A stretch of 64,000 nt of DNA from an uncultured Clostridia bacterium (GCA_944388585.1 CALXJI010000007.1:7276-71275); one strand, 5' to 3'; counted from the first letter of the stretch, positions 6,800 to 24,735 are shown. Notes: generated by a model from the sequence alone, not told the origin. Translations and numbers: made by a program.

Positions 6800-7677
6800 T
6801 GATTGTACCTCAAACAAAAAATGGTATATTAAATATAGATAAGCCACAAGGAATTACATCACATGATGTAGTAGATGCAATAAGAAAAATTTTTCCAGAT
6901 CAAAAAGTAGGACATACTGGAACACTGGATCCTTTAGCGACAGGAGTATTACCAATTTGTATTGGTGAAGCTACAAAGTTAAGTGATAATTTAACTAGTG
7001 AAATAAAAAAGTATAGTGTAAAAATGCTACTTGGAGTAGAAACAGATACTTATGATATTACTGGAAGAATAGTATTTGCTAGTGTATTTAATAAAGATGA
7101 AATTTATATAAAAGAAAGAATAAAAAGATTTATTGGAAAACAACAGCAAATGCCTCCTAAATATAGCGCTATAAAAGTCGAAGGAAAAAAGCTCTATCAA
7201 TATGCTAGAGAAAATAAGGATGTAGAAATAAAACCTAGAGATATAGAAATATATAATATAGATAATATAAAAATAGATTTAGAATCAAAAGAGGTAGCTT
7301 TTGATGTAGAGTGTTCTAAGGGTACATATGTAAGAAGTTTAGTGAATGATATTGGTAAAAAAATAGGATGTGGAGCTACAATGACTGAGCTTAGAAGAAT
7401 ACGAACAGGTAATTTTAAAATTGAAGATAGTATTCCTTTGTATGACTTTTTAAAATTAGATTACATAGATATGCTTAATAAAGTAATAACAATAGAAGAT
7501 TATTATATTGAAAATAAAAAAATAACTTTATCAGATGATGAGCTTGGAAGATTTTTAAATGGAGTAAAATTTGAAGTTCAGTCTTCTGATCAAATTGTTA
7601 GAGTATATAATAAAGGAAAATATATAGGCCTTGGAATAGTAGAAAATAAAATATTAAAAAGATTTATTATTGAATAG
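6799..7677 (+). CDS. truB: tRNA pseudouridine(55) synthase TruB
   Basis: GHTGTLDP catalytic motif with a PUA-like C-terminus; operon context. Confidence 0.92.
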   Translation: MIVPQTKNGILNIDKPQGITSHDVVDAIRKIFPDQKVGHTGTLDPLATGVLPICIGEATKLSDNLTSEIKKYSVKMLLGVETDTYDITGRIVFASVFNKDEIYIKERIKRFIGKQQQMPPKYSAIKVEGKKLYQYARENKDVEIKPRDIEIYNIDNIKIDLESKEVAFDVECSKGTYVRSLVNDIGKKIGCGATMTELRRIRTGNFKIEDSIPLYDFLKLDYIDMLNKVITIEDYYIENKKITLSDDELGRFLNGVKFEVQSSDQIVRVYNKGKYIGLGIVENKILKRFIIE

Positions 7678-7712
7678 TACATTGTATATTTATTTGTGAA
7701 TAAAAAAATAAG

Positions 7713-7745
7713 CAATGCTCATATTATATAATATGAGCATTATTT
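7713..7745. terminator. bidirectional rho-independent terminator between truB and the convergent minus-strand gene
   Basis: AATGCTCATA at 7713-7722 pairs with TATGAGCATT at 7731-7740, with A/T runs on both sides. Confidence 0.6.
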
Positions 7746-8533
7746 TAATCTTTATTTTTCTTTTTTAACTTTTTTTGAATTTTTAAATCTTCTTTAAATT
7801 TATGAAGATCTAATTTAAATTCCTCTAATTGTTTTTTAAAATCTTTGAATTCAAAATTTGGAAATGCATCTAGTAATCTTTCTATTTGAATGTTTCTTTT
7901 AGAAATCAAATTTTTTCTAAATTCACTAAGTTCTTTATATAAATAAAAATCAGATAATTTGTGTTGTAAATGATTTTGACTTTTTATTTTTTCTGCTAAA
8001 TCATATAATAAAGATAATTTCTCTTTTAGATTTAATAAAGAAATTACAGTAGAGCATGTATCTATGGTCATTATAATAAGTAATACTGTAGAAATTAATT
8101 GTATTAAATCTGATGGTATTTTTGAGATTAATGTAGATATTATAGGATGAATTCCATATAGAATTACTAAACCTAAAATTCCAAATTCTAATGTATTTAA
8201 AAGGCATATTCTACCTTTAATATTAAATTTCATATTTGAATAATCCCACCATTTAGCATTAAATATTTTTTCTAAAATAAAACTTGTTATATATTCAAGA
8301 ATTGAAGTAGCTAGCATTCCGAGTACAAATACATATATTGGAGAATAAATGAAATATCCTAAAGTATATATTACAATTAGTGCTCCAAATCCATAGATTG
8401 GACAATATGGACCAAATAAAAATCCTCTATTTGTCCATCTGCCGTCTCCTATTCTACAATATAACGTTTCTACAATCCAACCTAATACACTATATATAAA
8501 AAAATATAAAAAAAGAATAAAAAAATTATTCAT
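7745..8533 (-). CDS. PF06541-type ('putative ABC-transporter type IV') polytopic membrane protein with a C-terminal K/E-rich coiled-coil tail
   Basis: GWIVETLY...GPYCPIYGFGAL signature shared with the paralog at 36432-37043; multiple TM helices. Confidence 0.7.
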   Translation of the reverse strand: MNNFFILFLYFFIYSVLGWIVETLYCRIGDGRWTNRGFLFGPYCPIYGFGALIVIYTLGYFIYSPIYVFVLGMLATSILEYITSFILEKIFNAKWWDYSNMKFNIKGRICLLNTLEFGILGLVILYGIHPIISTLISKIPSDLIQLISTVLLIIMTIDTCSTVISLLNLKEKLSLLYDLAEKIKSQNHLQHKLSDFYLYKELSEFRKNLISKRNIQIERLLDAFPNFEFKDFKKQLEEFKLDLHKFKEDLKIQKKLKKKNKD

Positions 8534-8662
8534 TTAATCACCTTAAAATTATTATATTAAATAGAATTATAAAAGTCAAATTTAAAATTGGATAAAAATT
8601 ACTGTATAAAAAAATATCTTGGTGAAAAAATAATAATGAAATAGAAAAATGGAGGAAAATGT

Positions 8663-11600
8663 ATGAAAACCAAGAAAAAGATTTTTTTATTAATTTTGAT
8701 TTTTTTATTTATATTAGCTCCTAAAAATATTATAGCACTTACTTCAGGAGCTTATATGTATGATAGAATATATGTTGGTGTACCAGAACATGATGAGGAA
8801 TTTGGATATCCCGCATTTTTTTGTTGTACATTAGATGGTGAAGAAGTATATTGTATTGAAATGGGAGTTAGCTTACATAAAGCTGAATACGCTGAATATG
8901 ATTATGATGATCCAAGCATAGGCTATGCATTAGTAGCTGATCATGGATATACAGATAATGATGCAGCAAATTATCAAATTAGGCAGGCAGTTATTTGGGC
9001 TTTGCTTGGTCAAATTGATATTGAAGGAATATATGCAGGTGATTCTGGGTGTGTTAGAGCTGCTAAAAAGTTGTATTATGATGCAAAAGAATATAAGGGG
9101 ACAGTTGAAAAGCCAAAAGTCTCAACAAGTTCTATAGAATTTGAAATAGATGGAAGTGAGTATGTATCAAATGCAATATCAGTTAGTAAATCAGAAGGAA
9201 ATGAATATTATGATATTAATTTAGGTGGATTCCCAGATGGAACCTATATTACAGATATGGATGGAGACAAAATGCAAACGGATGATATAACTTGGAATAG
9301 TGAATTCCAAATTAGGATTCCTCTTGAAGTTATAAAATATGATATAACAAATATAAACATGAAAGTAACAAGTACAGGAACTGTATATAATACCACTAAA
9401 GCATATCATGCACCAAAAGATGAAGCTTCACAAGAAGTACTATCTTCAAAGGCTGAATCTTCTAAAAAAACTAGTTCTGTATCATTTAAATTAGTTAAGC
9501 CAATAAAAGCGCAAGGAAGTTTAGAAGTTAAAAAATTAGATGAATATGGTAAAACAATAGCAGGAACTGTATTTAAAATAACTAATGGAACTGAAACTTT
9601 TACACAAAGTACAGGATCTGATGGTATTGCAAGATTTATAGATTTACCAGTTGGTAAGTATACTATAACTGAAACTAGTGCAACAGATGGTTATTTTAAT
9701 GATAAAGTAGATATAACAGCAAATGTAATAGCAGGACTTACAGTAAATGTAGAAAAAACGAACAAGGAAAGTAATGGAAATGTTAAAATTATAAAAAGAG
9801 ATGCTGAAACTGGAGAAATACCTCAAGGTGATGCAAAATTATCTGGAGCAGTATACAAAGTATATGCAAATGAGGATATATATGCAGCAAATAAAATAAA
9901 TAAATTATTTTCTAAAGGTGATGAGGTAGGAACATGTACTACTGGTGAAGATGGAACTACAAATTCTATACAATTACCTTTGGGAAAATATAAATATAGA
10001 GAAGTTTCAGCTTCTGAAGGATATATTTTAAATGATGAAGAAATTGAATTTACAATTGAATATGATAATCAATATGTTGAGCTCGTAGATAAGACTTTTA
10101 CTAGTAAAGAAAATGTTAAAAGAAATAGTATAGAAATTATAAAAAAATTACAAGCAACAGATTCGACTCCACAGCAAAATCTTGCTGGTGCAAAGTTTTC
10201 AGCAACTTTAAAAAGTGATAGAAGTAAAGTATACTATTCAACTGTAACAGACAATAATGGATATTGTATAATTGAAAATTTACCTTATGGAACATATGAA
10301 ATCGAAGAAGTTGAAGTACCTGTAAATGCTTTAAAAATAGAAAATTTTGATGTTTTTATAGAAGAAGATTCATCAGAAAGAGAACCATATAGATATACTA
10401 AAGAAGATGTAGCTAAAAAAATGCAAATAACAATATATAAAGAAGATAGAGAAACTGGAACAGAAACTCAAGGTGATGCAAGACTTGAAGAAGCAGAATA
10501 TACTATATATAGAGATGAGGCATTAACAGATGCTATTGAAACTGTAAAAATAAGTAAACAAGATGATGGAACATATAGTGCAAAAACTGGATATTATTTA
10601 ATAGGAAAATATTATATAAAGGAGACTAAAAGGCCTGAAGGATATTTAGCAGACGAAGAAATTCATATTATAGAACAATTAGGAGAAAATCAAACAGAGG
10701 AAATATCTTATCATGAAATTACATCTACAGAACCTGTAGAAAGGGGAAATATATATATAGTAAAATATCAAGAAAATAATACAAATGAAGGAGAAGGATC
10801 AACTACTAAACCACCTGCAACAGGAGTTGAACTTACATTGACATTAAATTCAGATCCTTCAGTTTCATATAAATCAGTAGTAAATGATATTGGATATGCA
10901 GAATTTATAGATATACCTTATGGATGGTATACGATAACTGAAACAAAAAGCTTAGAATTTGTAGACATCATGGATCCACAAGCAGTATATGTATCATATG
11001 AAGGTCAAACTCTACATTATATTGTAGAAGACCCAAGATATGAAAGAAAATTAAAAATAGTAAAAAAAGATTCTGAGACAGAAAATACAATACCGCTTGC
11101 TGGCGCAACTTTTAAAGTATGGGATGTAGCTACAAAGCAATATATTAGTCAAGTAGTAAACTATCCTACACAAACACAAATTGACGAATTTATAACATCA
11201 AATGATGGAACACTGACTTTACCAGAAGGATTAATACCTGGAGAGTATGAATTAGAAGAAGTATCAGCACCTTATGGATATGTTTTAAATACATCTAGAG
11301 TGCCGTTTACAATTGATGCGACAACTCCAGAAGAACCAGAATATATAGAACTTACAACAGTAGAATTTCCAGATACTCCTCAAAAAGCAAGGATCATAGT
11401 ATATAAAAAAGGTGAAGTTGTTACATCTTCTAAGAAAGAAGATGATATGATAAGACCTGTATATGAAGAAATGGGATTACAAGGTGTAGAATATACAATA
11501 AAAGCAGTAGAAAATATAACAACACCAGATGGATCTGTTAGAATGTATGAAGGAGATACAATCACTTTTGTAACAGATAAGGATGGAATAGGAAAATCAC

Positions 11601-13144
11601 CAGAATTATATTTGGGATCATATACAATAAGGGAAAGTAAAACAGTTAATGGATATTTAATTCAATCTGAAGAAATACCGTTTGTGTTAGACTATAAAGG
11701 CCAAGAATTAGCAATTTATGATAAAAATTTAGACTATGTAGACGTAAGGCAAAAAATGAAATTAAAGATTAAGAAAAATATGGAAGATTCTAGTTTCTTA
11801 GATTTATTACAAGATGCATATAAAGACGTAGTATTAGGAATATATACAAGAGAAGACATGATTAATTATAATGGAGAAAAAATTATAGATGCAGATACAT
11901 TAGTAGATAAACTTTATATAACTGCTGAGGGAGTAAATACATCAAATTATGATTTGCCACTTGGAAAATATTATATAAAAGAAATTGCTACTAATGAAAA
12001 TTATATTTTAAATGACAATGAATATGATTTTGAATTTGCAAGTAATGATGATATAACATCAGTAATAACTATAAATTTATCAGATACTATACAAAATGAT
12101 CTTACAGATTTAGGAAAATTTAAATTATATAAATATACAAAAGAGGAGAGAAATTTATTACAAAGAATAGGTGATTTATTTACAGGATATGATTCTGATG
12201 TAAAAACTCATGCATTAAGTAATGTAAAGTTTAAATTATATTATGATGATAATGGTGTAGCTAAAGAATTATATACAGAAAGTGGCCCAGCTGAATATGT
12301 AACAGATGAAAATGGAATAATAGAAGTTAATGATCTACCTTTTGGAAAATATTATTATCAGGAGATAGAAGCGCCATATGGCTATGAGATAGATAATAAA
12401 TTATATGAATTTAATATTACAGATCAAAATGTAGAAAAACCTTTTTATGTAGAAGTAAATAATAAGTTAAAAGAAATAAAAGTATTTACAAAAATTGATG
12501 CATTTAATTCAGAGAAGATACCAGATTGTACTTTTGAAATTAGAGATGAATCAGATAAGGTAATATTTACGGGTACAACTAATAATGATGGAGATTTTTA
12601 TATGCCGATTGATCTACTTGATGTTGGTAAAAAGTATTATTATGTAGAGATAAGTGCTCCAGATATTTATGAGTTAAATACAGATAAACATGAATTTAGC
12701 ATGAATGAAGATATGACATTTACAATTACAAATGTTGAAAATTTAAGAAAAACATCAAAAGTAAAGCTAAATAAAACAGATTTATTAGGAGGAAATAAAA
12801 TACCAAATTGTACATTTGAACTTAGAAGTGAGGAAACAGATTTTGTTGTTACAGCAACAACAGATGAAAATGGTGAATGCTACTTTGAAAATATACCATA
12901 TGGAACATATATATATACAGAAATAAGTGCACCAGATGGATATATAATAGATACAACACCACATAGATTTACTGTAGATAGTGAAGAAGAAGAGATAAAT
13001 GTAATAAATGAAAGTATTGTTAATACATCAGATATAAATCTAATATTATTTACTATGGTCTTAATAGCAAGTGTAATAGGAATAAGTTACGTTGTATATA
13101 AAAATAGAGAAATGATTTTAGAAAAAATAAGAAAAGATAAATAA
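8663..13144 (+). CDS. giant cell-surface adhesin: signal peptide, thioester-domain-like N-terminal region, about 10 Cna-B/SpaA-type repeats, C-terminal TM anchor
   Basis: 1493 aa with an N-terminal signal peptide. It carries YCIEMG and QAVIW motifs. Repeats of the form K..DAETGE..QGDA.L.GA.Y.VY...LP.GKY...E..AP.GY recur roughly 10 times. The C-terminus is a hydrophobic stretch followed by basic residues. Confidence 0.85.
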   Translation: MKTKKKIFLLILIFLFILAPKNIIALTSGAYMYDRIYVGVPEHDEEFGYPAFFCCTLDGEEVYCIEMGVSLHKAEYAEYDYDDPSIGYALVADHGYTDNDAANYQIRQAVIWALLGQIDIEGIYAGDSGCVRAAKKLYYDAKEYKGTVEKPKVSTSSIEFEIDGSEYVSNAISVSKSEGNEYYDINLGGFPDGTYITDMDGDKMQTDDITWNSEFQIRIPLEVIKYDITNINMKVTSTGTVYNTTKAYHAPKDEASQEVLSSKAESSKKTSSVSFKLVKPIKAQGSLEVKKLDEYGKTIAGTVFKITNGTETFTQSTGSDGIARFIDLPVGKYTITETSATDGYFNDKVDITANVIAGLTVNVEKTNKESNGNVKIIKRDAETGEIPQGDAKLSGAVYKVYANEDIYAANKINKLFSKGDEVGTCTTGEDGTTNSIQLPLGKYKYREVSASEGYILNDEEIEFTIEYDNQYVELVDKTFTSKENVKRNSIEIIKKLQATDSTPQQNLAGAKFSATLKSDRSKVYYSTVTDNNGYCIIENLPYGTYEIEEVEVPVNALKIENFDVFIEEDSSEREPYRYTKEDVAKKMQITIYKEDRETGTETQGDARLEEAEYTIYRDEALTDAIETVKISKQDDGTYSAKTGYYLIGKYYIKETKRPEGYLADEEIHIIEQLGENQTEEISYHEITSTEPVERGNIYIVKYQENNTNEGEGSTTKPPATGVELTLTLNSDPSVSYKSVVNDIGYAEFIDIPYGWYTITETKSLEFVDIMDPQAVYVSYEGQTLHYIVEDPRYERKLKIVKKDSETENTIPLAGATFKVWDVATKQYISQVVNYPTQTQIDEFITSNDGTLTLPEGLIPGEYELEEVSAPYGYVLNTSRVPFTIDATTPEEPEYIELTTVEFPDTPQKARIIVYKKGEVVTSSKKEDDMIRPVYEEMGLQGVEYTIKAVENITTPDGSVRMYEGDTITFVTDKDGIGKSPELYLGSYTIRESKTVNGYLIQSEEIPFVLDYKGQELAIYDKNLDYVDVRQKMKLKIKKNMEDSSFLDLLQDAYKDVVLGIYTREDMINYNGEKIIDADTLVDKLYITAEGVNTSNYDLPLGKYYIKEIATNENYILNDNEYDFEFASNDDITSVITINLSDTIQNDLTDLGKFKLYKYTKEERNLLQRIGDLFTGYDSDVKTHALSNVKFKLYYDDNGVAKELYTESGPAEYVTDENGIIEVNDLPFGKYYYQEIEAPYGYEIDNKLYEFNITDQNVEKPFYVEVNNKLKEIKVFTKIDAFNSEKIPDCTFEIRDESDKVIFTGTTNNDGDFYMPIDLLDVGKKYYYVEISAPDIYELNTDKHEFSMNEDMTFTITNVENLRKTSKVKLNKTDLLGGNKIPNCTFELRSEETDFVVTATTDENGECYFENIPYGTYIYTEISAPDGYIIDTTPHRFTVDSEEEEINVINESIVNTSDINLILFTMVLIASVIGISYVVYKNREMILEKIRKDK

Positions 13145-13146
13145 AC

Positions 13147-13178
13147 AAAATATCCCTAGATTTAGGGATATTTTGTTG
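13147..13178 (+). terminator. rho-independent terminator after adhesin gene 1
   Basis: AAAATATCCCTA-GATT-TAGGGATATTTT hairpin followed by a GTTGTG/T-rich tail. Confidence 0.6.
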
Positions 13179-13364
13179 TGTAGAAAAGTGTGTGAAATAA
13201 TAGTGAAATTTTTTTGTAATATTTAATAAAAAAATCTAGAAAAAAGTAAATTTTTATTTTTTTATTGTTGAAATTAAAATTTCTTAATGATATTATTTTA
13301 TTATCAGAAAATAAAATAAAATTTTATTTTTTTGAAAAAATAAAAGGAGAGAGGGAGAGGATAT

Positions 13365-16300
13365 ATGAAAATAAGTAAGCTTAAATATGTATTTGCTTTT
13401 ATATTAATGGTAGCTGTAGCTACTGTAACTAATAGTGCAAAAGCAGTTACAATGCCAAATAATGGTCAAATTACAATAAGTACTATTATTGCATCACAGC
13501 TTGCTGCAATAGAAGATGGCGATGAACCATCAGATAGTACATATCAAAATTTAGTTTACCTTTTCAATTCCGGTTATTCTACAAGTGGTAGTGCACTTGG
13601 ACCTGCTATGAATCCAGTTTATTCATATTCAGTAGAAGATACTACAACTGGAATATACTCTAAAGTTTATGGCTTAAATTATGGAAATTCTGCAATTAAC
13701 AGAGAGGGAGTAGAGTATACAGGAATCGGAAATGGCAGCTATGCAGATAATAAAATTGGTCTTGGTTTAGCTTTCGGTTTAAATTATTTAAGCTCAGAAC
13801 AAGCTTCTAATCAGGAAGTTGTAGGCGCAGATGTACAAGCTTCATCAATCGCTACACAAATGTATATATGGATAGTAAATGCAGGTTTATTAGGAACTCC
13901 TGCTGAAACAGAAGTTGTTAATGCAAACTTAACAGGAAATGCATTAGCAAGATATTATAATATTAGAAATTCAGTAGAACAAGCTTCTGCTAACCCATCA
14001 TATACATATTCTTCAGTAGAAGAAGCTAAACAACATCCAATTGAAATGAATTGGAATGATGCAATGGGTAGATACGAATATACAGTAACTGATTCAAATG
14101 GACTTGAAACAATGGCTTTAGTTGCTTTATATATTGATGAAAACCCAAATATTTCTTATAGTAAGAATGGAGATTCAGTAACATTCTTTACAACTGAACA
14201 AGTTGGAACAATAGATAATCCAGAATGTATAACAGTTCGTAAATCTATAAATAATGGTCGTTGGGTACCAGGATATGCAACAACTGTAGATAATGGTCAA
14301 CAACTAGTATATTTATCTGGTAGACAAAATGCTAATAGCGATACTTATGTTAGTTTCTATACTAATGCTTTAAGAGTTCAAGTAACAAAAACACTTGGAG
14401 ATATTGATGCAAATCATAATACAGGAGATGCTACAGTAGCAGGTGCTGTATATGGAATATATACTGATTATGATTGTACTCAATTAGTACAAGAAATAAC
14501 AACAGATGCTAATGGTATTGCAACATCTAGACCATTAGAAGATAGAGATTACTATGTAAAAGAAATATCTCAACCAGAAGGAACAAAAATAGATGGAACA
14601 ACATATACAGCTAGAGCAGCAGATGCTCAAGATGTAAATGGTCAAAAAATTGTAAACGTTAATTCTAAAAACCAAGTAATTTATGGTGGATTTAGAATGA
14701 TTGTTTCAATTAGTGATTTAACTGGTGATACTACTAAAGAACCAGCAGTTGGATCAGTAATGAAATTAACATTAAATTCAAATCCAGATGAATATTATAC
14801 AGAAACTGTTGATGAGCATGGATATGTTGATTTTACAGACATACCATATGGTCATTATACATGTACTGAAATAGAAAAAGTAAAACCAGAATTAGACTTT
14901 ATGGATCCATTACCAATATATATTAACTCTGAAGAAACATTTATTTATTCAAAATTAGTAAATACTGAAGTAGCACAAAGATATGTAAGAATAGAAAAAC
15001 AAGATGCTGAATCTGGAAAAATAATTCCAATGGCTAACACAGTATTCCAAGTTAGAGATTCAGAGGGAAATCTTGTAATTCAAAGTATTAAATATCCAGA
15101 AGTACAAGAATTATCTTATTATACAACAGATGAAAAAGGATATTTAGTAATGCCTGAAAAACTTCCATATGGAGAATATACTGTTTATGAAGTAACTGCT
15201 CCAGATGGGTATTATAATGAGCATGCAACAGATGGACAACCTTCTGCAACATTTAATGTTGAATCTAATACTGTTGAAAATCCAGATAAAGATGCTCAAG
15301 TTGTAACTATAGTTAAAAATATGCCACAAAAGGTTAATTTAACTATAAGAACAACAGGACAAGTATTAGTAAATCCTAATGAACAACAATCTAACGGATA
15401 TACAATACAAGCTCCAGCATATGGATCAGGTGCTATACCAGGAGCAAAATATGAATTAACTGCTAAAACAGATATAAAAACTGGTGACGGAGAAATCCAT
15501 ATGGCAGCTGGGGAAACAGTAACTCTTACTGCAAATGAAAATGGTGTAATAACAACAAAATTATATTTAGGTAGTTATACATTAAAACAAGTATCTGTTC
15601 CAGAAGGATATGTTTTAGATTCTACACCAAGAGATCTAACATATACTTATAAAGGACAAACTATTCTTGAACAAAATGATACAATAACATATTCTAATGT
15701 AAGACAGGAATATGAAGTACATCTTAAAAAAGAATTTGCAGATCTTAACTTCTATAGACAAAATGAAAATGAGCCATCTATAGAATCTGCAGAATTAGAA
15801 GAATATGCAGATGTAATAATTGGAATTTATGCTGCTGAAGATATCACAGATTTACAAGGTAATGTTAGAATTGAAGAAGGCGATTTAGTAGATATTGTAA
15901 CTGTAAATAATGATGGAACTGCAATGGTTAATGTAAGTTTACCAACAGGAAACTTCTATGCTAAAGAGCTTGAAACTAATGAAAATTATGTTGTAAGTGA
16001 AAAAGAGTATCCAATTGTTGCAAAACCACAAGATAATGTAAATCAACTATTTAGAATAGATGTTGAGACTATAGTAAATGAAGCTAAAAAGGTTACTAAA
16101 TTTACTTTAGTTAAAGTAGAAGATACAGGAATTGAAGCAAATCAAGAAAATGAGAGATCTTTACTTGAAGCTGTAGAAGAATTTGCTGAAGGCGTTTTAG
16201 AAGGCGTATTTGGTAATACAGATGAAACAGTAGATGTTACAAGACTTGAGGGTGCTAAATATGCTGTATACTATGTAGGTAATGGCGGAGATTATCCTTT

Positions 16301-17138
16301 ACTTGAAAAAGTAAATGGAGAATTAGTTGAAGTTGTTCGTACAACAGACGAAAACGGAGAAATTGTTCTTGAAGGTCTACCTTATGGTAAATATACAGTA
16401 AAAGAATTAGAAGCTCCTAAATACTATGATTTAGATGAAACTAAATATGGATTTGAAGTAACAACTGAAGAGCCAGAGGCAGGATTAGTACTTGAAAATA
16501 CACGTACTTTAGTAGACATTGCAATAACTGTAAAAGATGAAGATGGAAATCTATTAAAAGATGCTCAAGTAGATTTAGTAGATCCAGAAACAAATAAAGT
16601 TGTTTATACTCAAGTAACAGATGAAAATGGTGTTGCTCAATTTGATCAAATTAGAGCAGGAAGATACATAAGAAAAGTAAGTGCTTTAAGTGCACAATAT
16701 GTATTACCAGAAGATCAAGAACTTTATGCTGAAGAAGATTCAGAAGTTTCAGCTGAAGTTGAAGTTAAATTTGTAAAAGGTAATATCTTAGTATATAAAA
16801 CTGATGCAGAAACAGGAGAGCCTGTTGCAGGATGTAAATTTAAAGTTACTAATGAACTAGGTGAAGTAGTAGCTGAAGGTACAAGTGATGAAAATGGATA
16901 CTATCAAGTTAATGATTTAAGATATGGTGTTTACTATGTTGAAGAGACAGAAGCTGCTGAAGGATATGAAAAGGATGCAACTATCTTCCAAGTAACAATT
17001 GAAGAAGATGGTGTAACTTTAGAAGTTAACTTTACAAATGTTCCTACTGGAGATATTGCAGTAGCAGCATATGTTGTAATGGCTTTAGTATCTTTAGGAG
17101 TAATTGCTAAAACAGTTAAAAAACTAAGAATGAACTAA
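13365..17138 (+). CDS. giant cell-surface adhesin paralog: signal peptide, TQ-motif N-terminal domain, Cna-B/SpaA-type repeats, C-terminal VPTGD followed by a hydrophobic stretch and basic tail
   Basis: 1257 aa with strong AAGGAGAGAGGGAGAGG RBS; ATQMYIW motif; repeats such as ILVYKTDAETGEPVAGCKFKV...YGVYYVEETEAAEGY; codon usage looks like a highly expressed gene. Confidence 0.85.
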   Translation: MKISKLKYVFAFILMVAVATVTNSAKAVTMPNNGQITISTIIASQLAAIEDGDEPSDSTYQNLVYLFNSGYSTSGSALGPAMNPVYSYSVEDTTTGIYSKVYGLNYGNSAINREGVEYTGIGNGSYADNKIGLGLAFGLNYLSSEQASNQEVVGADVQASSIATQMYIWIVNAGLLGTPAETEVVNANLTGNALARYYNIRNSVEQASANPSYTYSSVEEAKQHPIEMNWNDAMGRYEYTVTDSNGLETMALVALYIDENPNISYSKNGDSVTFFTTEQVGTIDNPECITVRKSINNGRWVPGYATTVDNGQQLVYLSGRQNANSDTYVSFYTNALRVQVTKTLGDIDANHNTGDATVAGAVYGIYTDYDCTQLVQEITTDANGIATSRPLEDRDYYVKEISQPEGTKIDGTTYTARAADAQDVNGQKIVNVNSKNQVIYGGFRMIVSISDLTGDTTKEPAVGSVMKLTLNSNPDEYYTETVDEHGYVDFTDIPYGHYTCTEIEKVKPELDFMDPLPIYINSEETFIYSKLVNTEVAQRYVRIEKQDAESGKIIPMANTVFQVRDSEGNLVIQSIKYPEVQELSYYTTDEKGYLVMPEKLPYGEYTVYEVTAPDGYYNEHATDGQPSATFNVESNTVENPDKDAQVVTIVKNMPQKVNLTIRTTGQVLVNPNEQQSNGYTIQAPAYGSGAIPGAKYELTAKTDIKTGDGEIHMAAGETVTLTANENGVITTKLYLGSYTLKQVSVPEGYVLDSTPRDLTYTYKGQTILEQNDTITYSNVRQEYEVHLKKEFADLNFYRQNENEPSIESAELEEYADVIIGIYAAEDITDLQGNVRIEEGDLVDIVTVNNDGTAMVNVSLPTGNFYAKELETNENYVVSEKEYPIVAKPQDNVNQLFRIDVETIVNEAKKVTKFTLVKVEDTGIEANQENERSLLEAVEEFAEGVLEGVFGNTDETVDVTRLEGAKYAVYYVGNGGDYPLLEKVNGELVEVVRTTDENGEIVLEGLPYGKYTVKELEAPKYYDLDETKYGFEVTTEEPEAGLVLENTRTLVDIAITVKDEDGNLLKDAQVDLVDPETNKVVYTQVTDENGVAQFDQIRAGRYIRKVSALSAQYVLPEDQELYAEEDSEVSAEVEVKFVKGNILVYKTDAETGEPVAGCKFKVTNELGEVVAEGTSDENGYYQVNDLRYGVYYVEETEAAEGYEKDATIFQVTIEEDGVTLEVNFTNVPTGDIAVAAYVVMALVSLGVIAKTVKKLRMN

Positions 17139-17164
17139 TTATAAATATTAGATTATTTTAAATA

Positions 17165-17200
17165 AGTATAGTCATATAGAAATGTGGCTATACTTTTTTA
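17165..17200 (+). terminator. rho-independent terminator after adhesin gene 2
   Basis: AGTATAGTCA pairs with TGGCTATACT (one G-U pair), followed by TTTTTTA. Confidence 0.65.
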
Positions 17201-19151: not shown

Positions 19152-19808
19152 TTAGTATGATTGTATTTGTATATTTACGTCAAAATTTTTTGAGCAAGTA
19201 TTCAAAAAGTTTTCTAAATTAATTTTTGCTTGCAAAATGTTTTTTTCATTATTTGAATTTTCAAATATTCTATCTCTTGCTATCTGTTCAAGTGCAAGTG
19301 TTTGATCTGGTGTATAGGTACTACCAAATATACTTTTATTTTCAGATGAGTAAATATCTGTTATATCAACAAAAGATAATTTTATATCGTTTATATTGTA
19401 GTATATTAGTACATTTGCACTTTCATCTATTTTAGTAGTTATATTACTACATTCAATTGTAAATGCTGTAGTATAATTTGCATATACTTTTATATCTGAG
19501 TTAAATAACCATTCTGTCCATGCATTATTTTGTGGTGTTTTATCATGACTTAAAGTTATTTTCCCAGAAGTTCTAAGTAATGTTAATGCTACGTTATTAT
19601 TTATACTTTCAACAAAATTTTCTGCTTTTTCAATTTCTTTATTTAATATTTCTTTTTCTAAATTTATATTTGTTTGAGCTTGTACTTCTTCTTTTAGTTC
19701 ATCTGTTTGTTGGTTATTATATTGAATATATTGGCATATTAAAGACATTAATGCACCTAGCATTACAAAAATTAAAATAAAAAGTAATTTTTTTAAAAAA
19801 ACTTTCAT
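19152..19808 (-). CDS. hypothetical membrane-anchored (signal/TM) coiled-coil protein
   Basis: N-terminal hydrophobic segment; no catalytic motifs; 218 aa. Confidence 0.5.
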   Translation of the reverse strand: MKVFLKKLLFILIFVMLGALMSLICQYIQYNNQQTDELKEEVQAQTNINLEKEILNKEIEKAENFVESINNNVALTLLRTSGKITLSHDKTPQNNAWTEWLFNSDIKVYANYTTAFTIECSNITTKIDESANVLIYYNINDIKLSFVDITDIYSSENKSIFGSTYTPDQTLALEQIARDRIFENSNNEKNILQAKINLENFLNTCSKNFDVNIQIQSY

Positions 19809-23825: not shown

Positions 23826-23856
23826 AAAGACAGCTCAAGCAGAGCTGTCTTTTTAG
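23826..23856. terminator. bidirectional rho-independent terminator
   Basis: AAAGACAGCTC-AAGCA-GAGCTGTCTTT hairpin with a flanking T-run; convergent genes on either side. Confidence 0.7.
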
Positions 23857-24539
23857 CTATTGGATGGTTTTCTTCTTTTGTGTTTTGAAAGAGTATTGTC
23901 TATTAATATAAGAATGTAACAAGCCGCAATGAATAATAGACTTATAAGTATAAGGTATTTAATTACACCTCCAACACCTATTTTGTCTATATCCAAAAAG
24001 AAATATGCGTATTTTCTTGATCCACCAGATCCAAAGAATTTTCCACCATGAGAGGAATAAGTGTACACATATATCAAATATAGTGATGGAAATATATACC
24101 ATAGTAAAGGATATTTTAACTTAAAATGTCCCTTATCATCAAATATTAAGTAATCTACAAAAACCATAATTGGTGTTATAAAATGTACAAAGACATTTGA
24201 AATACTAAAAATATTTGATGATGTATTTACATTTGCATCCATTATAAATCCTGTAGGATATAAGGATATTAAATAGATGGTAAATGTAAGTAGGATTATC
24301 ATTATAGTAGCACCTTTTAGAAAATAGTATACATCACACTTTTTCCAATCAGATTTGAATTGGGAGATCACAATGCTTAACAGATAAAAAGTAAGCACAA
24401 ATAGATTGCTTTGCATGGTGTAAAAAGATAAAATACTTGTTACAGAGCTTGTGTTTAGAATATTAGACAAAATACCAATTAAACAGCAAATAATTACTGC
24501 CATTTCGAACACAAAAGAAAGTCTTCTTTTGATATTCAT
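23853..24539 (-). CDS. Pr6Pr-like polytopic membrane protein (hypothetical)
   Basis: The ATG at 24539 is preceded by AAAGGTGG; about 6 TM helices; FYTMQSN motif. Confidence 0.6.
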   Translation of the reverse strand: MNIKRRLSFVFEMAVIICCLIGILSNILNTSSVTSILSFYTMQSNLFVLTFYLLSIVISQFKSDWKKCDVYYFLKGATIMIILLTFTIYLISLYPTGFIMDANVNTSSNIFSISNVFVHFITPIMVFVDYLIFDDKGHFKLKYPLLWYIFPSLYLIYVYTYSSHGGKFFGSGGSRKYAYFFLDIDKIGVGGVIKYLILISLLFIAACYILILIDNTLSKHKRRKPSNS

Positions 24540-24735
24540 ATTGCACCACCTTTCTGTATCCCATATTATACTATATTTTATACTACTTTTCAACATTATA
24601 GTTTACTATAATATTAATTGACAAGGGATTAATATGACGATATAATATAAAAAATAAAAAAAGGTGTTGAAAAATAGTGTTAATATATAAAAATACATTT
24701 TTTAGTGTATAATTTATATATCTTAGGGGGAAAAT

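Follow-up and report, generated by a model that had tools for sequence, protein, structure and literature searches.

What are the two giant proteins encoded side by side in the genome of an uncultured Clostridia bacterium, and does either of them hold the chemistry needed to attach covalently to a target? Their genes lie on the plus strand of a 64,000-nucleotide stretch of DNA (GCA_944388585.1 CALXJI010000007.1:7276-71275), called here the window, to which all coordinates refer; features are on the plus strand unless stated otherwise. Gene 1 (8663-13144) encodes protein 1, 1493 residues long (169 kDa, pI 4.5), and gene 2 (13365-17138) encodes protein 2, 1257 residues long (139 kDa, pI 4.3), both being delineated from their open reading frames (ORFs) and from their Pfam SpaA matches, 11 in the former and 8 in the latter. 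The coordinates and lengths match those given in the original prediction, which was made from the sequence alone. Its three-part build also stands for each protein, in which a signal peptide is followed by a separate head at the N-terminus and then by a long series of repeats; these, described as ~90 residues long, are not of uniform size, the spacing being 82-155 residues. The analysis favours, with a probability of roughly 0.8, a reading as fibrillar surface proteins that are exported via Sec and whose tandem genes are conserved as a pair; protein 1 would be an adhesin of the TIE type carrying a thioester domain (TED) at its N-terminus, and protein 2 a thioester-less paralog.

Several lines of evidence point to a divergent Class II TED in the head of protein 1 (residues 26-284, ~260 residues; 8738-9514). 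A Pfam scan of the head alone returns TED (PF08341) as the sole family match, with an E-value of 0.0086 over profile positions 2-100 of 102. A phmmer search of the PDB likewise returns a single match, 6fwy, the TED of EfmTIE86 from E. faecium (E-value of 0.018), and the alignment takes in the β-sandwich segment (PDGTYITDMDGDKMQTDDITWNSEFQIRIPL in protein 1, PAGMKIYDADGKEITNNTVKLNSSFTIKVPV in 6fwy). This segment belongs to the β-sandwich insert that, in Class II domains, separates helix 3 from the Gln hairpin: residues 198-229 of 6fwy are matched by 166-198 of the mature head. Foldseek comparison of the head model with the PDB yields four significant matches, all of them 6fwy or 6fwv chains (E-values of 4e-7 to 4e-6), the next one being at 0.17. 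Finally, the profile-profile comparison put forward with the original prediction as a check of the TED assignment gives a match: hhalign aligns the protein 1 family with 48 true TEDs at 96% probability (E-value of 4.5e-9), the Cys and TQ motifs being in register. The 48 TEDs were collected independently, via the protein 2 search described below, and the protein 1 head family consists of 12 sequences reaching down to 28% identity. A word-indexed homolog search had returned just 2 and 4 relatives for the two proteins. The first reading of this head was thus partly right: PDB, Foldseek, hhalign and three motifs all support its prediction as a divergent TED of Class II. The likeness to Class I that had been drawn from Cpa, SfbI and the C. 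perfringens TIE protein has to be abandoned, as the closest solved relatives are the Class II proteins EfmTIE86, BaTIE and SaTIE.

Which residues would form the thioester? In characterized TEDs, the thioester Cys of a [YFL]CΦζ motif bonds to the Gln of a weak ΦQζΦΦ motif far downstream, while a third motif, TQxxΦW, is accessory, and neither its Gln nor its Trp is required for the bond to form (Walden et al. 2015; Miller et al. 2018; PMC6194298, PMC4450167); according to the TED literature, TQxxΦW is not fully conserved among these domains. In protein 1, the YCIE motif (residues 63-66) provides Cys64 (codon 8852-8854) as the predicted thioester Cys. It is kept by 12/12 family members, the 28%-identical one among them, and hhalign places it opposite the Cys of the true TEDs. 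The second motif, RQAVIW (residues 107-112; 8981-8998), represents the accessory helix motif, TQxxΦW, in a variant form, and the string QIRQAVIWAL in which it is embedded is invariant across the 12-sequence family. The original prediction had taken YCIEMG and RQAVIW as the thioester pair. Both motifs are indeed present and the Cys is the predicted bonding residue, but because a TED Cys bonds the downstream ΦQζΦΦ Gln, TQxxΦW being accessory, its partner should be Gln257 and not Gln108. Gln257 (codon 9431-9433), in the sequence SQEVL ([S/G]QxΦΦ), is, apart from that of the helix motif, the sole Gln to be invariant in this family. The resulting Cys-Gln spacing is 193 residues, comparable to 204 in EfmTIE86 (Cys88 and Gln292), 171 in SaTIE (Cys296 and Gln467) and 188 in TIEpLS20 (Cys68 and Gln256), for which the bonded pairs are documented. 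Cys64-Gln257 is consequently the predicted thioester pair of protein 1.

The head of protein 2 (residues 28-336, ~308 residues; 13446-14372) proved far more elusive. When Pfam, NCBIfam and the PDB were searched with this head, as a single sequence or as a small profile, nothing or marginal matches only came back, its AlphaFold2 model (pLDDT 35) found no match with Foldseek, and the direct comparison of the two head families is collinear but marginal, with a best E-value of 0.068. The bridge to TEDs came only through an exhaustive HMMER search, in which the profile of the protein 2 head was run against 1.84 billion representative proteins and found 100 matches at E≤1e-3. About 13 clusters among these are protein-2-type orthologs of 1232-1265 residues with NVxTGD tails. 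Most of the remaining matches exhibit YC[IML]x ~59 residues ahead of TQxx[IV]W, and the Pfam TED gathering score is passed by 10/10 of those tested, at 29-52 bits. The protein 2 head aligns over its full length with these TED relatives (hhalign 99.7%, E-value of 2e-26), and a profile of protein 2 and its relatives matches the TED of SaTIE (6fx6, Class II) with an E-value of 6e-8, in an alignment that brings the Cys, the TQ helix, the β-sandwich and the bonded Gln (in NAQKV) into register. The thioester-domain-like N-termini originally proposed for both proteins are therefore borne out, since TED homology is found for each head; for that of protein 2, the original prediction had offered no evidence, and it is the exhaustive search that provides it.

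The same alignments reveal what this head has lost. The column of the TED Cys is occupied in protein 2 by Gly103 (codon 13671-13673) and, throughout the 13 protein-2-type clusters and the orthologs from 10 metagenome-assembled genomes (MAGs), by G, S, T, A, M or P, while Cys stands there in 58/59 of the other relatives covering it. The TQxxΦW motif is retained as TQMYIW (residues 164-169; 13854-13871). The column of the bond-forming Gln, located through the NAQKV segment of SaTIE in the 6fx6 alignment, falls on Gln312-Gln313 within NGQQLVY (14298-14303); it is not conserved in the family, being Q, K, N, S, T, V, D or E, with Q in some members including that of the window. Because the Cys position is never Cys in the family and the Gln is not conserved, the protein 2 head cannot form a thioester. 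It is, judged from these alignments, a TED homolog, closest to SaTIE, that is incapable of this chemistry. The covalent binding to host molecules that the original prediction mentioned for TED adhesins is thus plausible for protein 1 and does not extend to the protein 2 family. Papers on TEDs describe the Cys and the Gln as the only fully conserved residues (PMC6194298 among them), and a limited phrase search of the literature returned no report of a Cys-less bacterial TED family. One TED relative from the HMMER search, P0093, also has a weak Pfam match to a MobA/VirD2 relaxase, which recalls the TED adhesins found on conjugative elements such as pLS20.

Beyond their heads, the two proteins are clearly related. 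BLASTP aligns residues 584-1482 of protein 1 with residues 335-1255 of protein 2 collinearly, with 29% identity over 944 residues (E-value of 9e-92), and the alignment extends through the tails, IVNTSD standing opposite NVPTGD. In view of this alignment, the two genes are best described as an old tandem duplication, protein 1 bearing three extra stalk domains and the heads having diverged. The arrangement is not confined to the window: the same locus is present in several gut metagenome assemblies, and a scan of reference genomes identified 11 related loci. The tandem pair, with near-constant lengths, is conserved in 10 MAGs at species level that bear the label "uncultured Clostridia bacterium", whose sample names indicate human, mouse, rabbit and water-deer guts as sources. 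In all 10 orthologs, protein 1 is least conserved in its TED, a sign that the thioester head may be subject to recombination or diversifying selection.

Some of these related loci have features of their own. In the MAG BRZ_FI bin34 (L013:973-5517), the protein 1 ortholog is a mosaic relative to 8663-13144 of the window, with 51% identity in the TED, 69, 80 and 87% along the stalk and 95% in the last stalk domains and tail; the adjoining protein 2 is 84-97% identical throughout. The water-deer MAG that bears one of the pairs (L012) harbors a second tandem pair on another contig (L016:5765-15749). Its first gene encodes a 1321-residue SpaA-stalk protein that has a ~220-residue head without Pfam match and ends in a VTNTGD tail scoring above the cutoff of the LPXTG-anchor model. 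Its second gene encodes a TED protein of at least 1945 residues, the head of which is 28% identical to that of protein 1 and keeps the Cys, QIRQAVIWAL and GQNVV. In three species (L009, L012 and L014), the gene upstream of the pair (~7076-8962 in these loci) encodes a membrane protein of 614-623 residues with a His/Cys-rich N-terminus, not nrnA-truB as in the window. To judge from this differing upstream gene, the two adhesin genes seem to have travelled together from one chromosomal context to another.

The stalks are built from CnaB/SpaA-type domains, eleven in protein 1 (residues 285-1451; 9515-13015) and eight in protein 2 (14373-17036). Pfam SpaA (PF17802) matches 11 stretches of the former (E-value of 1e-129) and 8 of the latter (7e-79), and an iterated hidden Markov model of the repeats identifies the same 11 and 8 domains, tiling the whole span between heads and tails. 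The domains are 82-155 residues long with a median core identity of ~37%, and are thus old and divergent. A triad of Lys, Glu and Asn (or Asp) is known to form the isopeptide bond of CnaB domains in pilins and in BaTIE (PMC6194298). Inspection locates the Lys on the first strand (e.g. LEVKKLD, KIIKRD, KIVKKD), the Glu on the Y.x.E..AP.GY strand, and the Asn or Asp on the last strand. The triad is present in 10/11 domains of protein 1, the exception being domain 4 with an ambiguous last-strand residue, and in 5/8 domains of protein 2, parts of it being missing in domains 2, 4 and 7. Of the "isopeptide or ester-bond" repeats first announced, it is the Lys-Asn/Asp isopeptide type that fits the predicted domains. 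No sign of Thr-Gln ester domains was seen, as all 19 repeats fit the SpaA model and no other repeat family was detected, a dedicated ester-domain model not having been run. Length variation by repeat slippage, the so-called "periscope" behaviour, was considered and rejected: DNA-level tandem repeats are absent from the two genes, and ortholog lengths are nearly constant.

Both proteins possess the elements of export and retention. Protein 1 starts with a signal peptide (residues 1-25; 8663-8737) with a cleavage site predicted, by reading the sequence, at IIA/LTSG, the mature N-terminus ALTSG being kept in orthologs; that of protein 2 (residues 1-27; 13365-13445) would be cleaved at AKA/VTMP and is conserved in orthologs. 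At the other extremity, the protein 1 tail (13016-13141) consists of IVNTSD, a 22-residue transmembrane (TM) helix and a basic KNREMILEKIRKDK, and the protein 2 tail (17037-17135) of NVPTGD, an 18-residue TM helix and KTVKKLRMN. Both tails are as first described (NVPTGD, a hydrophobic stretch and KKLRMN for protein 2; a TM helix and a basic end for protein 1), and the lack of a canonical LPXTG in either protein is confirmed. The motifs are conserved, as [FYIVL][TA]N[VI]xT[GA]D in 21 protein-2-type sequences and as V[NFY]T[SGA]D in the protein 1 orthologs, in each case directly followed by the TM helix and basic tail.

How these tails hold the proteins at the cell envelope is the point on which the alternatives are closest. 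One possibility, at somewhat less than even odds, is that neither protein is a sortase substrate, both being anchored in the membrane by their TM helix, and that x-T-[GSA]-D is a structural motif of the juxtamembrane region or last strand. Consistent with this, TIGR01167, the LPXTG-anchor model, does not match the tail of either protein even at E≤10, and NCBIfam scans of the C-terminal tails return no sorting-signal model for either. A scan for the TLxTC motif finds no sortase ORF in the window or in the 11 related loci with their flanks of up to 10 kb on each side. The related motif NVQTG of C. difficile CbpA was not cleaved by SrtB in vitro in two independent studies, and protein 1 has a Ser instead of Gly after the tail-motif Thr. 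The motif also abuts the last CnaB strand without any linker (17022-17054 and 13016-13033), as LEVNFTN/VPTGD in protein 2 and FEVTN/TGD in related proteins, so that its Asn occupies the position expected for the isopeptide Asn, an odd setting for sortase cleavage. On the other side, motif, hydrophobic helix and basic C-terminus compose the classic tripartite layout of a sorting signal, found in both tails; T-G-D also occurs in the xPxTGD signals that many related TED proteins carry, others ending in VTNTGD; and one such VTNTGD tail, that of L016, scores above the TIGR01167 cutoff. Because the tails miss the LPXTG model, no sortase is encoded nearby and NVQTG is left uncleaved by SrtB, surface display and covalent wall anchoring are putative, and the same three points weigh against the favoured reading. 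For protein 2, the odds are roughly three to two for wall over plain membrane anchoring; for protein 1, membrane anchoring is more likely than wall anchoring.

The preferred reading, that of a TIE-type adhesin paired with a thioester-less paralog, can be outlined as follows. In the host lineage, one of uncultured, spore-forming gut Clostridia, protein 1 would be exported and its Cys64-Gln257 thioester would form autocatalytically in the N-terminal Class II TED. Its eleven CnaB/SpaA domains, mostly with the isopeptide triad, would provide a long stalk resistant to protease and force, and the V-N-T-S-D motif, TM helix and basic tail would keep it at the cell envelope. Upon contact with a target, a nucleophilic amine may attack the thioester, resulting in a covalent intermolecular amide bond; such bonds have reportedly been shown for SfbI and Cpa. 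Protein 2 would carry, on a shorter stalk of 8 domains, a head derived from a Class II TED in which the Cys has been lost (Gly103). As thioester chemistry is impossible there, protein 2 is presumably a non-covalent binder or a structural component.

A rather improbable alternative is that the protein 1 head is a TED fold in which the thioester has ceased to form or to be used, in which case both proteins would be ordinary non-covalent adhesins. It draws on the facts that weigh against a live TED. The head scores 16.9 bits with PF08341, below the gathering cutoff of 22, and the Pfam score is weaker or absent in two of its three closest relatives. In the TQxxΦW motif the T is replaced by R, with the Q, Φ and W retained. 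Gln257 is assigned by invariance and spacing, without alignment to any bonded Gln of a solved structure. The structural comparison proposed with the original prediction is of mixed value: the AlphaFold2 model of the protein 1 head matches only TEDs, with a poor TM-score of 0.23, and both head models, calculated from shallow alignments of 3 and 5 sequences, are of low confidence (pLDDT 47 and 35), such that the proximity of Cys and Gln is not measurable from that of protein 1. Moreover, the paralogous protein 2 demonstrates that this lineage tolerates the loss of the chemistry. Against all this, neither Cys64 nor Gln257 varies among the 12 sequences, of which the most distant is 28% identical, and because no other part of protein 1 evolves as fast as the remainder of the head, selection would seem to act on exactly these two residues. 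A sortase-assembled pilus, with protein 1 as a thioester tip adhesin like Cpa and protein 2 as the shaft or base pilin, is very improbable and was rejected: the tandem genes, the Cpa-like head and stalk build, tails departing from LPXTG as the motifs of pilus-specific sortases do, and the NCBIfam "SpaH/EbpB major pilin" score of 120 bits on protein 1 (cutoff 95) speak for it, but that score adds up 6 individual matches to CnaB domains and reflects no pilin architecture, neither protein has the YPK(N) pilin motif, no sortase ORF turned up across the 64 kb of the window or in the flanks of up to 10 kb at the 11 related loci, proteins of 139-169 kDa with 8-11 stalk domains are far above shaft-pilin size, and a hairpin and a promoter-like site lie between the two genes.

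These intergenic elements bear on how the adhesin and its thioester-less paralog are expressed. Gene 1 is preceded by the Shine-Dalgarno sequence GGAGG (8651-8655), read directly 7 nucleotides ahead of the ATG. Just past its stop codon, and overlapping the final base of it, lies a hairpin with a perfect 15-bp stem (13144-13177, no strand assigned), AACAAAATATCCCTA-GATT-TAGGGATATTTTGTT, a likely terminator or attenuator that could stop transcription arriving from either side or lower the read-through into gene 2. A promoter-like sequence, TTGAAA-17-TATTAT with an upstream TG (13268-13296), was located by consensus scan 69 nucleotides before gene 2, which has its own purine-rich ribosome-binding site, AGGAGAGAGGGAGAGG (13345-13360), and is followed by an intrinsic-terminator-like hairpin with a T-run (17164-17195). 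Gene 2 may therefore be transcribed separately, as indicated by the intergenic hairpin, the promoter-like site, its own ribosome-binding site and the downstream terminator-like hairpin. The codon usage and ribosome-binding site of gene 2 had been taken as marks of very high expression, a view that comparison within the window does not support. Its effective number of codons (Nc, 30.7) and third-position GC content (GC3, 0.079) are no outliers, falling within the range of the 35 ORFs tabulated, among which there is no ribosomal-protein reference set (Nc 24-40, mostly ~30-35). Extreme AT-biased codon usage is common to all genes of the window, and the shifts in gene 2 are small (CGT 0.13, GCT 0.53, and C-ending two-fold codons 0.127 as compared to 0.062 in gene 1). 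Nor is the ribosome-binding site distinctive, since a strong Shine-Dalgarno sequence precedes both genes.

With a putative promoter of its own, protein 2 would lend itself to a two-component mode of adhesion, an unlikely scheme, in which its TED fold, turned to non-covalent binding, would provide a reversible first contact or a fibrillar coat before the longer protein 1 locks on covalently. In an extreme version of this idea, the pseudo-TED of protein 2 may itself be the ligand of the protein 1 thioester, cells or fibrils thereby becoming covalently cross-linked.

The pair sits in a housekeeping neighbourhood with a GC content of ~26%. Upstream are nusA-infB-rbfA-nrnA-truB, assigned from gene order and size, and downstream are ilvE-like, SIR2 and GerA genes. 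Two further conserved ORFs on the minus strand, at 19152-19808 (218 residues) and 23853-24596 (247 residues), have no Pfam family above threshold; the metagenome contigs L002-L005 carry both in matching positions.

Work on thioester adhesins has dealt almost exclusively with pathogens, and the pair described here would extend the family to an abundant, uncultured lineage of gut commensals. Protein 2 would be a natural paralog that keeps the TED fold after loss of the Cys, and so offers a comparison for the role of this fold without covalent chemistry. The fast-evolving and apparently recombining head of protein 1 fits with a pressure exerted by the host or by target specificity. Further cases for the question of how clostridial surface proteins with NVxTG-type motifs are anchored come from the conserved tails, NVxTGD and VNTSD.

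Among known systems, protein 1 most closely resembles EfmTIE86 (6fwy) and BaTIE, the BasC protein of B. anthracis (6fwv), which are the only significant sequence or Foldseek matches of its head. It shares with them a signal peptide, an N-terminal Class II TED with its β-sandwich insert, a CnaB stalk, a C-terminal anchor and a similar Cys-Gln spacing. It differs from them by its low identity (~14-19%), by RQAVIW in place of TQxxΦW, by 11 CnaB domains instead of 3-5, by a VNTSD tail instead of LPXTG, and by its host, an uncultured gut anaerobe. For the protein 2 head, the best solved relative is the TED of S. aureus SaTIE (6fx6), with which the TQxxΦW helix and the β-sandwich segment (..TDTNgvL..sKnGNsLt..) align; whereas SaTIE has its bonded Cys and Gln, in protein 2 the Cys column is taken by Gly103 and the Gln is not kept in the family.

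TIEpLS20 (p34), from the B. subtilis plasmid pLS20, is also like protein 1 in having a Class II TED, a CnaB stalk and no canonical LPXTG, and even the positions of its Cys68 and Gln256 are close to Cys64 and Gln257. Unlike the present pair, it is a single gene product of 778 residues, plasmid-borne in a conjugation operon. It illustrates that TED adhesins can target other bacteria instead of a host. As to the tails, C. difficile CbpA, a clostridial collagen-binding CnaB protein, presents the same succession of an NVxTG-type motif (NVQTG), a TM helix and a basic tail, and the C. difficile SrtB substrates, with their (S/P)PxTGD motif, have the T-G-D core in common with the protein 2 tail; CbpA, however, has no TED head, and its own anchoring by sortase is doubtful. 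S. pyogenes Cpa and SfbI exemplify the covalent-adhesion chemistry predicted for protein 1. They belong to the other TED class, Class I, of which no structure was matched; moreover, Cpa is a pilus tip subunit and SfbI carries fibronectin-binding repeats.

Divergent TED heads missed by Pfam are common in the fibrillar adhesins of Firmicutes (PMC9210967). Taken alone, protein 1 belongs, by its predicted domains and motifs, to the known family of Class II TED TIE adhesins, of which it would be a very divergent member. What is notable and new in comparison with these systems, if in a modest way, is one feature: the conserved pairing of a putatively live TED with a Cys-less TED paralog.

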